A stretch of DNA of 64,000 nucleotides from sequence record NC_054912.1, one strand, 5' to 3'. The translations under genes were made by a program, and so were the position numbers. The notes beneath the pieces were generated by a model. It was not told the origin of the DNA, made no database searches, and saw nothing but the letters and a program-made list of their open reading frames with translations. This stretch comes from Escherichia phage vB_EcoM_F1. Shown here in pieces: positions 57,957 through 64,000 of this stretch. Positions within the stretch are counted from its first letter, which is position 1; each line of letters opens with the position of its first letter.

Positions 57957-58336
57957 CTATAACACAACACGAGGGACTTGTAAACTACATTTTGAACTTT
58001 TTAGTACGCGTAATAGGCATGCGTCGATTTTATACTGTTTCATTGTTTGAAGAGCAGTATCAAAAACAGCATTAATGACACCAATTGGATTTCCACCCAA
58101 CTTAACTAATGATAGTTTCTCATTAACACCTATCATTACGATATGCATCATTTTGTCGCCTGGTTTAACGTTTTATTTGTATCACCGCCAGAGGTGTATG
58201 TACAAAATCTAAATCCAGGAAGCACGCTTTCTTCGCCGGCTTGAATAGCAAAAATTTGTGGTATTTTATGCTTAGGATTTAAGTTAACAACCGGCGCCGA
58301 AGCGCCGTCAAATAATTATGTAATAAGTTCCATGAT
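57957..58336 (-). pseudogene. degenerate tandem copy of the alt 5' region (premature stop and frame disruption)
   Basis: nucleotide alignment to 60000-60388; reads ATG GAA CTT ATT ACA TAA against alt ATG ATG GAA CTA ATT ACA GAA; the 64 aa track ORF aligns to alt residues about 55-115. Confidence 0.7.
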
Positions 58337-60388
58337 TTATCCTTGAACGAACTTGTAAGGCATGTTTGCAATATCTATGCAAGACGCAATAATTCCAAGA
58401 GATGATTCTACTTTCTGTTTAACATTTGATGAAACAAATGATGCAAAGTCAACTCTGTCTTCTATATCACCTGTCATTGTAACCAATTCACCAGTTTCCA
58501 TTAAATGGTCTCCGTCATAGATTACCGATTCGGTGAGTTCTTCTGTGGTCATAACTTCAGCTTGAATAAGCTTGTTGTTAGTTCTAACTGTTCCATCGTT
58601 GTAAGATGCATCAGTTATTTTATTAACTTTGACCATTAATCCACGTGGCAAAATGACTTCCATTTCATTTGAAGGCGCTAAACTTCCACCGGGTAAAACA
58701 ACATTGACCTTATCAGCCCCAGTAATAACCCATCCAATTCCAACTAAATTATCGCTAGAATTTACTAGTCCTTCATCAGTTTTATCAATAGAAACGCTTA
58801 GACGCTTTTCGTCTGGTAAAACACCTATAGATGAATCAGTCATCCAAGTACCAAAAATATTTGGATATAATGATGTTGACACAAAGTTTCTAAAATAAAA
58901 AACTCGATTTTTTACCATTGCTTCATATATTGAAGGTAACATTCGTTGTGAACGATACAAAGTAATACCTTTTGGTAATCGTTCACCATTTTTAAAGGCT
59001 GAATCTAAATTATCAATGGCTTGTTCTATTTCAGATGCTGTTAAAATACTTGTACGCTCATCTGGATTATATAATCCCAAAAGAGCATTATTCATGTCTA
59101 CATATCCTGAACCTACATATTCACGAATTCCGCGTTTTTGCGCTGGTGTGTATTTAGATGAATCTTTATTTTCGACTATAGGATGTAATGACCATCCAGC
59201 GGTAAGAGCATATCCACGTAATTCTCTTCGAATAATCTTTGTTTTTATTGCATTCCAAGAATTTTGTACTAACTCATTTGCAGCATCTTGGTTTAAATGC
59301 GAATGTCTGTTAATATTTCTTTCAAACCAAGCACCTTTATATTTTTCTAAAGTATCATCGACGATAGAAGCAATAGTTTCTAAAGTTTTTATTGAAGTAA
59401 TAGATTCTTTTCGTAATTTTTCTAAAGCTTTATTTTTTATTTCTGCATTAATAATGGATTCTTTATCTTCAGGAATTATAGAAGCTTCTCTGAATGTCAT
59501 TCCAGCTGTAACACTGCTAAGAGCATTCTCTAGTGCAAATCCTGAAGTAGAAATAACAGTTAATTCATTAGCATCAGAAATTAAAGGAGCGTCAGCAGGT
59601 TTATTTAATTCTGCTGCTGAAGCCTCAAATTTTTGAAACATCGGCGTTTCAAATCTAGAAGATTCCAACGACTGACTTTGTGCAATTGCTCTACGTGAAA
59701 TTTTAACTTTAACGATTACAGCTTGGTCAGAACGTTTATCATTTTCTTGTGCAATAGATGCTGCAATTGCCTCATTTTTAGTTACTTGAGCTCCAGTATC
59801 TTTATTGATATAAACATCACCGACCTTCGATTCAACTTTAGTAAAGAGCTCGGTACTAATTTCCGGAACTCCTGGAATGTCTTCTAGTGATACATTTTTG
59901 CGATGTATAAGAATATATGCATACTTTTTATCATAATCCCAGAGTTCCTTAAGAAGGACGTATCTGCCACCTGAACGACTACGGATAAGTCTATCAGCAA
60001 TAACTTGAATTTGTCGAGCTTGGCCAGCAGTTTTAGACTTAAGAATACGAAGCATACAAGCATCAATTTTATACTGACGCATTGTTTGCATTGCAACAGT
60101 AAAAACCGAATTGATATAATTAATTGGGCTTGGACCAAGACCTTTCAATTTAGCAATTGAACCTTTAGCAGTTAATGTAAAAGGAACAATATGCATCATT
60201 TTATCGCCCATCTTTAAATCGCGATTAGTATCACCTCCAGATGTATAGGTACATAAACGAAAGCCTGGTTGTTCAATTGCATCATCAACATGAACTGAAA
60301 AAATTTGCGGTATTTTCTTCTTTGGATTTAAGTTTGTAATTGGAAGAGTAGTATCTTCGTCAAATAATTCTGTAATTAGTTCCATCAT
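58337..60388 (-). CDS. alt: Alt ADP-ribosyltransferase (head-packaged)
   Basis: 683 aa, begins MMELITELFDEDTTLPI; late promoter upstream; T4 size and order. Confidence 0.9.
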   Translation of the reverse strand: MMELITELFDEDTTLPITNLNPKKKIPQIFSVHVDDAIEQPGFRLCTYTSGGDTNRDLKMGDKMMHIVPFTLTAKGSIAKLKGLGPSPINYINSVFTVAMQTMRQYKIDACMLRILKSKTAGQARQIQVIADRLIRSRSGGRYVLLKELWDYDKKYAYILIHRKNVSLEDIPGVPEISTELFTKVESKVGDVYINKDTGAQVTKNEAIAASIAQENDKRSDQAVIVKVKISRRAIAQSQSLESSRFETPMFQKFEASAAELNKPADAPLISDANELTVISTSGFALENALSSVTAGMTFREASIIPEDKESIINAEIKNKALEKLRKESITSIKTLETIASIVDDTLEKYKGAWFERNINRHSHLNQDAANELVQNSWNAIKTKIIRRELRGYALTAGWSLHPIVENKDSSKYTPAQKRGIREYVGSGYVDMNNALLGLYNPDERTSILTASEIEQAIDNLDSAFKNGERLPKGITLYRSQRMLPSIYEAMVKNRVFYFRNFVSTSLYPNIFGTWMTDSSIGVLPDEKRLSVSIDKTDEGLVNSSDNLVGIGWVITGADKVNVVLPGGSLAPSNEMEVILPRGLMVKVNKITDASYNDGTVRTNNKLIQAEVMTTEELTESVIYDGDHLMETGELVTMTGDIEDRVDFASFVSSNVKQKVESSLGIIASCIDIANMPYKFVQG

Positions 60389-60408: not shown

Positions 60409-60416
60409 TATTTATA
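60409..60416 (-). promoter_or_regulatory. late promoter TATAAATA for alt
   Basis: minus-strand TATAAATA, then GAGAGGAT and the ATG at 60388. Confidence 0.6.
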
Positions 60417-60421
60417 AAATT

Positions 60422-60439
60422 AAAGGCCCGAAGGCCTTT
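60422..60439 (-). terminator. terminator hairpin aaaggcc-cgaa-ggccttt after the alt.1-like ORF
   Basis: inverted repeat followed by T-rich sequence on minus strand. Confidence 0.5.
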
Positions 60440-60626
60440 AATAATCTAACGGTAAGAGAGTACGATATATTTCAAACTTTGGACCTTTTTCATAGGCATC
60501 AAATGTTTCTGTGAATTTATTATAAGCATATGCATCTACAAATTCGAGAATGACTTGTGATACAGAAGTAGAAACATCTCCACCTTCTTTTTGAGCAATG
60601 ACAATTGTTTCTAAGTAAGCTTTCAT
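60438..60626 (-). CDS. hypothetical protein (T4 alt.1 position)
   Basis: 62 aa ORF, ATG start overlapping the ligase stop. Confidence 0.55.
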   Translation of the reverse strand: MKAYLETIVIAQKEGGDVSTSVSQVILEFVDAYAYNKFTETFDAYEKGPKFEIYRTLLPLDY

Positions 60627-62086
60627 AGACCAGTTACCTCATGAAAATCACCAAATACATCCTCGAATGTATTAGCTTTAGTTTTATCTTCGCGTAAACG
60701 AATCGCAATCGGAAGAAATAATTTAACGTAATCAGTGCGGCCATCAGATTTTAACCAACCGTTGCATTCGCACTCTAGAATTTTTCCAATATAATAATTT
60801 TGGTTTTCCATAATGCGAGTACGGTCAAGTTCATGTGATTTTACGCCGGCTTTATCTTTTAAGCCTGAACCAGCATTTACCTTAATTTTTCCACACTCTG
60901 ACTCAAGAATAAATCCACCTGCTTTAGTAGGGTCTTTACGGTGAGGATAAATTCCTACAATTTTTAAATCAACATCAATTACTTCTTTAAATTTATAGAG
61001 ATTTTTTGAACGAGCATTTTCCCATAATCCATCGATATTTTTGAGAATAATACCTTCAAGACCTTGGTCAATATACTTTTTATAAATTACCTTAGCTTCA
61101 TCTAGGTTATTTACTACCTGGTTTTCAATTAAAATTACTTTATCATAGCCTGATGTCATTTGTTCTAGTTTAGAAAAACGTACATCATATTTCAAACGAA
61201 ATGCAGGAAGACCGTATATTTCTACCAACGGGACATAATCCCAAACCTGAAACTTCATGCATTGAGCTTCTTTTTCAGAAATGGTTCCCTTTAAAGATTT
61301 ATTAGCGATTCCATTAGAAGTAGTACGTGATTCAGCTACTTCGGCGAATTCTTTGGCTTTACTAATTTCAGGATAAGCATCAAAAAGAAAATCTAGGCCT
61401 TCTGGCTCCTTTTTAACTTGCTCATGGTATACCAATTCGCCATCAATTAACACGCCTTCTGGATGAATCTGGCGGGCTTCAGCGGTCATTTTGATTAATT
61501 CTTCCTTAAGAAGATCTAATCCTAGATATTCATTACCAGCTCGTGATAAAAGACGAACATCATCTAATTCATCACCTCTGACTTCGGCAAAGCACCGAGC
61601 CCCATCAGCTTTTAACTGGGCAAAGGCTGGAAATTTGATATTCTTATTAATGCCTTTTTCATCATAAGAACTTGCAAGCATTTGAGGTTGTTCAGGAATT
61701 AAACCTGACCAAACTTTGTTTGCAATAGATACTGAAGCACCACATTCAAGGTCTCGCATCATCACTCGACGCAAAACTTCAACATCATCTTTTTTACCAT
61801 CGGTGATATATCCAGTTAATTCCTCAATTGCTGCATTTCCAGTCAATTTCCGAGTAGCTAATGTGAATTCAATGAAGTCAAGCATATCGGTAAGAGTCAA
61901 CATTCCAAAACTCTGGGTAGCAATACCAGGTTTAGGCCATTTCTTGATATAATACTGCAACCCACGAGAATAAGTCAGACGATATACTCGTTTAAGCAAT
62001 TCATTATCTTTATTCTTTTCAAGAATTGCTTGCTTCTGCTTAGTTGAACCAATAGATGCTATTTCGTTCAGAATTTTAAGAATCAT
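60623..62086 (-). CDS. 30: ATP-dependent DNA ligase gp30
   Basis: 487 aa, begins MILKILNEIASIGSTKQKQAILEKNKDNELLKRVYRL; adenylation motif KADGARC. Confidence 0.95.
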   Translation of the reverse strand: MILKILNEIASIGSTKQKQAILEKNKDNELLKRVYRLTYSRGLQYYIKKWPKPGIATQSFGMLTLTDMLDFIEFTLATRKLTGNAAIEELTGYITDGKKDDVEVLRRVMMRDLECGASVSIANKVWSGLIPEQPQMLASSYDEKGINKNIKFPAFAQLKADGARCFAEVRGDELDDVRLLSRAGNEYLGLDLLKEELIKMTAEARQIHPEGVLIDGELVYHEQVKKEPEGLDFLFDAYPEISKAKEFAEVAESRTTSNGIANKSLKGTISEKEAQCMKFQVWDYVPLVEIYGLPAFRLKYDVRFSKLEQMTSGYDKVILIENQVVNNLDEAKVIYKKYIDQGLEGIILKNIDGLWENARSKNLYKFKEVIDVDLKIVGIYPHRKDPTKAGGFILESECGKIKVNAGSGLKDKAGVKSHELDRTRIMENQNYYIGKILECECNGWLKSDGRTDYVKLFLPIAIRLREDKTKANTFEDVFGDFHEVTGL

Positions 62087-62352
62087 TATTCATCCTTCAG
62101 AGTTTGGTTTACAGCTCTATTATAAATCAATTCATCATTAAGCTCAGTCAAAGACTTATGATATGTGGTTCTAACTTTATTTCCTTGCATCCAGTGCTTG
62201 ATATAAATGAAACCTTGCTCTACGCATTTTTTAAAAATTCGTTCGTCTTTTTGAGCTCGGAATTCTGGATTGCATCTAAAAAATTGATTTACGTGACCGT
62301 AATCACGTGTAGTATTACCTTCATTTTCATAAATAGTATGAACAACAAACAT
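62086..62352 (-). CDS. hypothetical protein (30.1 position)
   Basis: 88 aa ORF, ATG start. Confidence 0.55.
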   Translation of the reverse strand: MFVVHTIYENEGNTTRDYGHVNQFFRCNPEFRAQKDERIFKKCVEQGFIYIKHWMQGNKVRTTYHKSLTELNDELIYNRAVNQTLKDE

Positions 62353-63191
62353 TAGAACGCTCCTTGAAAAATATTATCACCACTAGTAGGTCTATTATAC
62401 AAATACTCTATGCCACCAGGTTTAATATAGTTCCATGTCTGAAACGGATGCGTCTGATATGGATGATATAGATGATTATAAGGATTAAATCCAGGAGTTC
62501 TCCAGGTAGTGTTCCAAGGAAAAGAATCGTTTTTAATCATCTTTTCAATTACATCTTTTATAGCTTTTTCACTATCAAAACTTTCTTTATTTTCCTTTGG
62601 TGAAAAAAGCTTATTCTCTACATCGTTCCATGTATAAACTCGCTGAGCAGTTTTTGGAATATTGTCACGCTCCCCTCGAGCCATCCAATAAACAGGAACA
62701 TTTAATATTTCACTCGCGTGATCGCAGTGGTGAGCGAGATCGTCAATATAACAAATTACGTTATATTTCTCTTTTGCCTTTTTGAACAACTCTTCTTTTG
62801 AAGAATCATGACCACACATCATTACTTCTGAGAAGGCACCAGGAAAAAGAGCATTTAAATTAAATTGACGATTCAGCAGAGCGTCAATAGAATCACCCAA
62901 TGCTGTAACAGCTACAAAATTATAATCTTCTTTTAATTTGTTAATTACACACAGAGCATCTTTATATGGAGACAAGTAACGAATAAAATCTGAACGATTG
63001 TATTTTTCAATTAACTTGACGCCAAGTTCTTCGTCACAATTAAAGAGTTTACCAGGAGAAATAAATTTCTCATCTTGGATCATTTTTAAAATATGTTCTA
63101 ACGGAAGATTATATTTCTGAGCAAAATAAGGAAGGCCTGATTGCCAGCTTAAACATACTCCATCAATATCAGTTAAAATAGTAGGCTTCAT
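62352..63191 (-). CDS. HAD-superfamily hydrolase-like protein (30.2 position)
   Basis: 279 aa; N-terminal motif I ILTDIDGV (DxDG[TV]); later YIDD. Confidence 0.6.
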   Translation of the reverse strand: MKPTILTDIDGVCLSWQSGLPYFAQKYNLPLEHILKMIQDEKFISPGKLFNCDEELGVKLIEKYNRSDFIRYLSPYKDALCVINKLKEDYNFVAVTALGDSIDALLNRQFNLNALFPGAFSEVMMCGHDSSKEELFKKAKEKYNVICYIDDLAHHCDHASEILNVPVYWMARGERDNIPKTAQRVYTWNDVENKLFSPKENKESFDSEKAIKDVIEKMIKNDSFPWNTTWRTPGFNPYNHLYHPYQTHPFQTWNYIKPGGIEYLYNRPTSGDNIFQGAF

Positions 63192-63646
63192 AGAGAGTCT
63201 CTTAATAGGTTTAACACATCAATAAATTCAGCTTCGGTTAGTATTGTATCATCTTTTGTTAGACCACTAGCCATGCTGTGCTTCAAAACTTTTCCTTTCG
63301 AGGCTTGTAATGCATCACGAAAGCCCTTGTTTTGGATCGCTGCTTCAAAATATGCATTTGTGTATAATTCTTTCCACGCCGGGGAGTATCTTGAAAACGG
63401 AACTCCAAGCCAGAAGAGGGTCCCACGGTCCTGAGCTCTAGCATAAGACCTTCCAGCTTGTTGAGCGGAAAGCCCGGATAACCCAAATATACGACGTTGT
63501 TGTTCAACGTTTTTCACCTTGCATCCTTGGAGGAATCCTTCAAGACCTCCAAATTGAATACCATCCATAACGAAAGGCCATTGGGCGAAATTACTTAATG
63601 CACATGATGGCCACCTAAAATTACTTCTAATCTCTAACTCAGACAT
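63188..63646 (-). CDS. NADAR (YbiA-like, DUF1768) domain protein (30.3 position)
   Basis: ATG at 63646 (track ORF began at TTG 63652); segment LSNFAQWPFVMDGIQFGGLEGFLQGCKV closely matches the E. coli YbiA core FSNFAAWPIKVDGKTWPTSEHYFQAQKF. Confidence 0.65.
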   Translation of the reverse strand: MSELEIRSNFRWPSCALSNFAQWPFVMDGIQFGGLEGFLQGCKVKNVEQQRRIFGLSGLSAQQAGRSYARAQDRGTLFWLGVPFSRYSPAWKELYTNAYFEAAIQNKGFRDALQASKGKVLKHSMASGLTKDDTILTEAEFIDVLNLLRDSL

Positions 63647-63845
63647 TTTCAATGCTTATAATTTCAACATCAGCCCAATGACCATAGTTTGGTAGACGAA
63701 ATTCAACTGGCCAGTTAGGGTCCTTTTCTAATATAATAGACTCAACTCGTGGTTCTTCATGTTCATCAGTATATGGATTTTTATCTGTTACTTTATATGT
63801 GACCTTAATGTACTGAATTCCAAAAATCTTATTAATTATATTCAT
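63639..63845 (-). CDS. hypothetical protein
   Basis: 68 aa ORF, ATG start. Confidence 0.5.
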   Translation of the reverse strand: MNIINKIFGIQYIKVTYKVTDKNPYTDEHEEPRVESIILEKDPNWPVEFRLPNYGHWADVEIISIENV

Positions 63846-64000
63846 ACTAATTCCTTTAATCCGTAAATAGGAGATAATTCATCACCCATACGAAGGTCTT
63901 CATTTCCATCTACCCAGGAAACAATATAAGCCTCTTTTATTTGAACACCACTCCATTTAAATGGAGGTAGAACCTTAGAAATTAATCCAGGTATACCAAC
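63842..64000 (-). CDS. hypothetical protein, C-terminal part only (gene starts beyond window end)
   Basis: open frame from the window edge to a TGA at 63844-63842 overlapping the next ATG; 52 codons. Confidence 0.4.
   Translation of the reverse strand, partial: VGIPGLISKVLPPFKWSGVQIKEAYIVSWVDGNEDLRMGDELSPIYGLKELV

Follow-up and report, generated by a model that had tools for sequence, protein, structure and literature searches.

The protein gp30.3 of bacteriophage T4 was renamed AdfN, "anti-DarT factor NADAR", by Johannesman et al. [quoted passage not shown] In the same work, purified AdfN stripped ADP-ribose from DarT1-modified DNA in vitro, and the protein was impaired by the exchanges E36A and K43A as well as by loss of the C-terminal helix. 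RB69 carries a natural frameshift which removes the last 15 residues together with the activity, and this phage is sensitive to DarTG1 (PMC11825919). T4 gp30.3 hydrolyses guanosine-ADPr, not thymidine-ADPr (Toxins 2024, PMC11125620). According to the same study, the residue in the last strand is His in phage NADARs, Glu in YbiA and Asp in the NADARs linked to DarT1. Because AdfN of T4 fails to rescue uninfected E. coli from DarT1 and barely helps the phages T5 or Bas25 (PMC11825919), the picture of a free enzyme that cleans DNA is incomplete, and the findings suggest a T-even-specific factor or context for the full activity of AdfN.

A transposon screen of T4 on DarTG1 hosts, available as a preprint (bioRxiv 10.1101/2025.11.20.689424), gave gene 30.3 as the top hit. 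In its supplementary table the mean of the 30.3 insertions falls from 261.0 to 0.7 on DarTG1 (log2FC -7.25, adjusted p 0), and on hosts without DarTG1 the gene is dispensable, with 27 of 28 TA sites hit. Insertions in nudE, alt, modA/modB and adfA (61.2) are neutral on DarTG1 in these data. All values from this preprint used here refer to passages of the main text and to T4 rows of the HIDEN-SEQ table, the DarTG1 sheet of which was assigned from the order of the sheets and the main text, not from its header.

The window analyzed in this work is a stretch of 64,000 nucleotides from Escherichia phage vB_EcoM_F1 (NC_054912.1). In a nucleotide comparison, positions 62000-64000 showed 100% identity with Escherichia phage vB_EcoM_FN and 95-99% identity with about 400 other Tequatroviruses. 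Based on the T4 annotation and tblastn, the final 6 kb of the window are composed of co-directional minus-strand genes which match those of bacteriophage T4 gene for gene and are transcribed in the order 30.4, 30.3, 30.2, 30.1, ligase, alt.1 and alt (Table 1). Along the string from 30.4 to alt.1 the neighboring genes overlap by 8, 4, 1, 1, and 4 nt, respectively. The overlap of 30.3 and 30.2 has the sequence ATGA, gene 30.1 shares a single nucleotide with each of its flanking genes, and alt.1 and alt are separated by a 49-nt gap with a GC-rich hairpin and a T-run. Both open reading frames described in an earlier sequence-only reading of this DNA, those of 30.3 and 30.2, exist with the boundaries given in Table 1; their location on the minus strand had not been mentioned there. 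That reading had also placed the two genes downstream of DNA ligase and in one operon with it. The tightly packed gene string agrees with the latter, but since the string is transcribed on the minus strand, 30.3 and 30.2 lie upstream of the ligase gene, and "downstream" holds in plus-strand coordinates alone. Scans for promoter and terminator consensus sequences between 58 and 64 kb performed no better than with shuffled sequence and were uninformative on operon boundaries. The scan also failed to pick up the obvious hairpin after alt.1.

Table 1. Genes of the adfN-ligase string in the window of vB_EcoM_F1, in order of transcription.
Gene	Position	Strand	Start/stop	Length (aa)	Assignment and basis
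30.4	63639..63845	-		68	phrog_2042; T4 annotation
30.3 (adfN)	63188..63646	-	ATG/TGA	152	putative NADAR-fold DNA ADP-ribosylglycohydrolase
30.2	62352..63191	-	ATG/TAA	279	HAD-superfamily phosphatase-like
30.1	62086..62352	-		88	DUF3045, PF11243 (E 4e-64); between 30.2 and ligase
30	60623..62086	-		487	ATP-dependent DNA ligase, PF01068 (E 1.2e-32); 99% identical to T4
alt.1	60438..60626	-			T4 gene order
alt	58337..60388	-			T4 gene order

The product of gene 30.3 matches the Pfam family PF08010 (Phage_30_3) with an E-value of 4e-70 and is identical to T4 gp30.3 in 150 of 152 residues, with equal length and the same start. The two proteins differ at S60 (A60 in T4) and M125 (I125 in T4), neither of which is a catalytic position. 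The sequence-only reading had regarded a stretch of the protein as a close match to the core of E. coli YbiA; this stretch, LSNFAQWPFVMDGIQFGGLEGFLQGCKV, begins at residue 17. A profile built from an alignment of 63 homologs of gp30.3 indeed matched YbiA (2b3w) with an E-value of 0.0056, and the match spans the LSNFA...EGFLQ..K motif, that is, the very stretch quoted earlier. The YbiA string given in the sequence-only reading also proved correct in the alignment with 2b3w. The closeness was overstated, as only 11 of the 28 residues in the motif stretch are identical, and "close match" is too strong an expression because both the single-sequence search and the Pfam NADAR model miss the link to YbiA. 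Searched as a single sequence against the PDB sequences, gp30.3 yielded chance matches alone (E ~1), and the NADAR profile search proposed in the sequence-only reading turned out negative, with no match of the Pfam model PF08719 to gp30.3 even at E ≤ 10. No match to gp30.3 was obtained in NCBIfam either. One homolog (P0083) carries precomputed matches to both PF08719 and PF08010. The similarity of gp30.3 to YbiA is remote, and its membership in the NADAR superfamily rests on the profile match, the fold and the literature, not on the threshold of a curated HMM.

The AlphaFold2 (AF2) model of gp30.3 reached a pLDDT of 93 and a pTM of 0.88. In a Foldseek comparison of this model with the PDB, the best three structures were YbiA (2b3w), the NADAR-ADPr complex from Phytophthora (PnNADAR, 8bau) and the DarT1-associated NADAR from Geobacter lovleyi (8bat), all of them with a probability of at least 0.99; no significant fold match was found in the PDB beyond these three. 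For YbiA the E-value was 3.2e-5 and the TM-score 0.67. In PnNADAR, the Glu and the Lys of the E-x-x-x-Q-x-x-K motif contact ADP-ribose. Within the 63 homologs used to determine conservation (34-87% identity), E36 and H123 of gp30.3 are invariant and K43 is conserved in at least 90%. In the profile alignment E36 and K43 correspond to the respective residues of SEHYFQAQK in YbiA; the NADAR catalytic residues, on which the sequence-only reading had made its proposal depend, are thus present. H123 is located at the end of the modeled strand 120-122, which is the last strand. The C terminus is intact (...LLRDSL*, 152 aa), and a helix comprising residues 138-151 is modeled with high confidence.

Taken together, we consider it highly probable that the ORF 63646..63188 encodes the Tequatrovirus ortholog of AdfN with its function against DarTG1, and that the neighboring gp30.2 is a HAD protein and not a partner of AdfN. 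Identity, fold, residues and synteny of gp30.3 are established in the present analysis, and by analogy the vB_EcoM_F1 allele would behave like T4 AdfN with regard to guanine-ADPr activity and DarTG1 resistance. In the published mechanism, which has the best support, the DarT1 of the host ADP-ribosylates guanines in the phage DNA, leading to a block of replication. AdfN, a stand-alone ADP-ribosylglycohydrolase with NADAR fold produced early in infection, then cuts the N-glycosidic bond between ribose and guanine (ribose-N2-guanine), whereby free ADP-ribose is released and the base restored. The (S/L)EGFLQ..K motif contributes the conserved Glu36 and Lys43 to catalysis, and the last beta-strand contributes His123, which is specific to the phage proteins. 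AdfN in this way acts as an "orphan antitoxin" mimicking DarG1.

The proposal that a phage NADAR serves as counter-defense by removing ADP-ribose from DarT-modified guanine has been borne out experimentally for T4 AdfN; the anti-DarTG1 function of gp30.3/AdfN is hence already known and published for a protein with 99% identity. The function deduced from the raw sequence had experimental proof only from 2024-2025, which indicates that the reasoning was sound. The annotation lags behind: among 1,509 GenBank records with a relative of 30.3, 36 of the 40 phage records listed designate the gene product as "hypothetical protein" or "Phage protein". That the function of AdfN is known despite such uninformative labels is a practical point for annotation.

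The neighboring gp30.2, which is 98% identical to its T4 counterpart, had been proposed to be a HAD-type hydrolase on account of the motif ILTDIDGV, which begins at residue 5. The assignment to the HAD proteins was confirmed by the conservation of four motifs, the AF2 fold, and the Foldseek and family matches. Residues D8, D10 and G11 of motif I, K132 of motif III and D150-D151 of motif IV do not vary among 38 homologs, and T96 of motif II is nearly invariant. The AF2 model, with a pLDDT above 90 over residues 1-190, displays a Rossmannoid HAD core; the HAD part (residues ~1-200) includes a C1 helical cap formed by helices within residues 16-65 and is followed by an extra C-terminal tail of about 80 aa, which is rich in aromatic residues and Pro and predicted to be disordered from about 228 to 279. 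The structure which Foldseek ranked first for the model was the mouse 5'(3')-deoxyribonucleotidase 2jao (E 2.5e-8). The matches that come next are likewise HAD proteins, and the best 50 of the 122 PDB matches with E ≤ 1e-3 all belong to the HAD superfamily. The family profile of gp30.2 likewise matches cdN 2jao (E 0.012), with the context DxDGVxxx(W/F)xSGL common to both. While gp30.2 itself had no Pfam match at E ≤ 10 and none in NCBIfam, and its single-sequence search against the PDB sequences gave chance matches alone (E ~1), 10 of the 38 homologs match PF00702 (best E 3.5e-4) and five weakly match PF06941, NT5C (best E 1.2e-4). A literature search on gp30.2 retrieved neither a functional study nor a published assay. 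In T4 the gene is non-essential, with 72 of 72 sites hit, and the ligase essential; insertions into 30.2 are neutral in minimal medium (-0.10) (10.1101/2025.11.20.689424), and as far as the T4 transposon data go, gp30.2 has a phenotype neither on DarTG1 nor in minimal medium. As judged from the model and the family profile, gp30.2 is a bona fide HAD-fold protein, a probable phosphomonoesterase, which most resembles the C1-capped 5'(3')-deoxyribonucleotidases. It probably acts on a small substrate, for which we infer the nucleotide-type class.

Comparison of 80 viral loci with a 30.2 gene revealed the ligase gene within 8 kb in 75 and within 600 bp in 68 of them, and a synteny of alt, ligase and 30.2 was widespread. 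A 30.3 homolog was found within 8 kb in 37 of these loci and directly adjacent in 19. Conversely, only 25 out of 80 loci with a 30.3-type NADAR have 30.2 nearby (≤8 kb), and in several T4-like genomes the 30.3-type NADAR is located about 55 kb from 30.2 (e.g., loci L028 and L098 on one contig). Gene 30.2 is therefore a conserved neighbor of the ligase gene in T4-like phages and tracks ligase rather than 30.3.

These data bear on the idea that AdfN and gp30.2 form a functional pair, in which gp30.2 either processes the product of the NADAR protein, as had been suggested in the sequence-only reading, or represents the T-even helper. The ATGA overlap of the two genes and their adjacency in Tequatrovirus, Mosigvirus-like genomes and some T4-like phages that are only distantly related (direct neighbors in 19 of the 80 loci, within 8 kb in 37) would suit such a pair, yet across the 80 loci 30.2 follows ligase and not 30.3, the NADAR gene is about 55 kb away in many T4-like genomes, and in other phages most 30.3-type NADARs lack a 30.2 gene in the flanking 8 kb. 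Both genes are near-universal in T4-like phages, with relatives of 30.3 in 1509 and of 30.2 in 1438 GenBank records and with similar host spectra; this co-occurrence at the genome level is uninformative, because both are quasi-core genes in one virus family. ADP-ribose is a pyrophosphate diester without a phosphomonoester and for this reason not a direct substrate of a HAD phosphatase. AdfN requires a T-even factor for full activity, but the T4 transposon data largely refute the assignment of this role to gp30.2: insertions into 30.2 (71 TA sites) are neutral on DarTG1, with a log2FC of -0.12 (p 0.61) compared to -7.25 for 30.3 (10.1101/2025.11.20.689424). With synteny, T4 30.2 insertions and ADP-ribose chemistry all against it, we regard the processing of the NADAR product by gp30.2, and a functional pair in general, as very improbable; gp30.2 as the missing AdfN cofactor was rejected on the basis of the synteny and the T4 transposon data. 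The only other significant DarTG1 hit among the T4 table rows examined was gene 30.4, the insertions of which are partly depleted (log2FC -1.79, adjusted p 0.014; 10.1101/2025.11.20.689424). Gene 30.4 lies directly upstream of adfN, and the two genes share 8 nt, which include the stop of 30.4 and the start of adfN; the depletion is most simply explained if the insertions act on adfN through polarity or translational coupling. We rank this explanation as more likely than gp30.4 being the T-even factor. A role of gp30.4 as that factor seems unlikely. Separately, gp30.2 would be a ligase-linked quasi-core nucleotidase of T4-like phages.

For gp30.2 the proximity to the ligase gene allows for a further explanation, namely a DNA-end 3'-phosphatase which readies nicks for the adjacent ligase in the manner of the HAD domain of PNKP. 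This function is suggested above all by the linkage to ligase, with a distance of at most 600 bp in 68 of the 80 loci, to which a weak PHROG match of gp30.2 to the polynucleotide-kinase family phrog_415 (E 0.0021) can be added. However, the model of gp30.2 has a C1 cap, and such caps normally enclose small substrates; 5'(3')-deoxyribonucleotidases come out best in both the fold and the profile comparison, T4 already encodes PseT, and, in the T4 transposon data, 30.2 is non-essential (72 of 72 sites hit) as opposed to the essential ligase. A DNA-end phosphatase thus appears rather unlikely, and because of the cap domain and the best fold matches we favor, with moderate confidence, a phosphatase for small-molecule (deoxy)nucleotides over one that would treat 3' ends of DNA on behalf of ligase. 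For gp30.3, in turn, a main function in the ADP-ribose chemistry of the phage's ADP-ribosyltransferases Alt, ModA and ModB, or in the degradation of small ADPr-derived immune signals, has to be considered. From comparative genomics it was proposed that phage NADARs are expressed early, along with the ARTs, and that soluble derivatives of ADPr may be their preferred substrates (PMC9503650). The alt gene belongs to the same gene string, within the widespread alt-ligase-30.2 synteny, although alt is absent from the vicinity of many 30.3-type genes. The published experiments demonstrated de-ADP-ribosylation of DNA and an essentiality of 30.3 that is conditional and specific for DarTG1. According to the T4 transposon data, 30.3 is dispensable without DarTG1 (27 of 28 TA sites hit), and on DarTG1 hosts insertions into alt, modA or modB behave neutrally. 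A main function of this kind is accordingly extremely improbable, and an AdfN directed against DarT1-modified DNA remains the preferred reading for gp30.3.

Among known systems, gp30.2 resembles the deoxyribonucleotidases cdN and mdN (NT5C, PF06941; 2jao, 2i7d, 1q92), with which it has in common the Rossmannoid HAD core with the C1 helical cap and a motif I of the form DxDGV with an aromatic residue and SGL after it. The identity between gp30.2 and these enzymes amounts to 13-19%, and gp30.2 differs from them in that it passes no Pfam threshold and possesses the extra tail. E. coli YbiA (2b3w) is the best structural match of gp30.3 and has the SNFA..W/HP..DG...E..FQ..K motif in common with it; overall identity is about 17%, and YbiA carries a Glu at the position of His123. 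Proteins of the YbiA type have been linked to a riboflavin-intermediate N-glycosidase and to housekeeping roles.

For the DarT1-associated NADAR antitoxins, Schuller et al. (Mol Cell, 2023) are reportedly the source. These DarG1-type NADARs, e.g., the one from Geobacter lovleyi (8bat), have the NADAR/YbiA fold in common with gp30.3 and catalyze the glycohydrolysis of guanine-ADPr, as published for T4 gp30.3. Unlike them, gp30.3 is a stand-alone protein with no linked DarT, has a His instead of an Asp in the last strand and is devoid of the N-terminal extension; T4 AdfN also differs from DarG1 in showing no antitoxin action in uninfected E. coli. The T4 AdfN itself is like vB_EcoM_F1 gp30.3 in E36, K43 and the intact C-terminal helix, and only the two conservative substitutions, S60 for A60 and M125 for I125, distinguish the proteins. 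The order 30.4-30.3-30.2-30.1-30-alt.1-alt, the flanking genes and the overlaps are the same in T4 and in vB_EcoM_F1.

The gene directly upstream of adfN (gene 30.3, whose T4 orthologue encodes the NADAR enzyme AdfN acting against DarTG1 defence) is gene 30.4, which overlaps the start of adfN by 8 nt. In the published transposon screen of T4, insertions in 30.4 were significantly depleted on the DarTG1 host (log2FC -1.79, adj p 0.014), and among the parts of the T4 table examined it was, besides 30.3, the only gene with a significant depletion. This depletion could reflect a polar effect or a role of 30.4 as a candidate helper of AdfN. The coordinates of this gene and of the further features discussed here are listed in the following table.

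Features of the region from gene 30.4 to alt and beyond
Feature	Position	Strand	Description
Gene 30.4 ORF	63639-63845	-	68 aa, phrog_2042
Putative ORF within adfN	63283-63507	-	74 aa, other frame; counterpart of T4 annotation 30.3'
gp30.2 tail	62352-62600	-	residues about 200-279; predicted disordered; aromatic/Pro/Asn-rich
Hairpin	60415-60439	-	perfect, AAAGGCC-TTCG-GGCCTTT, then T-run; between alt.1 and alt
64-aa ORF	57957-58151	-	similar to Alt residues about 64-125 (MMHIV...QYKIDAC.LR.LKS)

The association of the NADAR gene with the 30.2 block is not maintained throughout the family. In several T4-like phages a 30.3-type NADAR gene, whose product is about 40% identical, is located ~55 kb away from the 30.2-ligase-alt block instead of adjoining it, as seen for seven pairs of viral loci, the two members of each pair sharing a contig (L028/L098, L029/L147, L030/L121, L048/L159, L055/L102, L056/L115, and L069/L109). 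It follows from this distance that the NADAR gene has moved or was separately acquired within the family.

The HAD-fold protein gp30.2 ends in the short motif G-(I/T)-E-Y-(L/W)-x-x-(R/Q)-P-T, which is also found C-terminally in many long-form homologues and looks like a docking peptide. About half of the gp30.2 family, with members of ~200 aa, lack the tail completely.

Relatives of gp30.3 and gp30.2 occur in 1,509 and 1,438 phage records in GenBank, respectively. Although the function of AdfN is published, 36 of the 40 records listed for 30.3 give the features beneath the match no other label than “hypothetical protein” or “Phage protein”. In NCBI, one homologue of gp30.2 (P0180, 216 aa) carries the name “DNA ligase”, probably an annotation slip from the adjoining gene. 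A discrepancy also concerns the “T4 phage NADAR (gp30.3)” construct, given as residues 1-208 in the methods of PMC11125620 (Toxins 2024), whereas T4 gp30.3 and the ORF described here both comprise 152 aa. Since some gp30.3 homologues reach 201 aa (P0032, P0033), a longer relative may have been used in that study; alternatively, the numbering may include tags.

The only sizeable intergenic gap in the gene string from 30.4 to alt is the one of 49 nt between alt.1 and alt. The hairpin lies directly 3' of the alt.1 stop codon and, together with its T-run, resembles an intrinsic terminator or an RNA-processing signal; it was absent from the output of a consensus scan for promoters and terminators (58-64 kb). 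Two of the small ORFs have counterparts in T4: 30.3' is labeled there as “internal translation in a different reading frame”, and the 64-aa ORF corresponds to alt.-1/alt.-2, a partial alt duplication in the T4 annotation.
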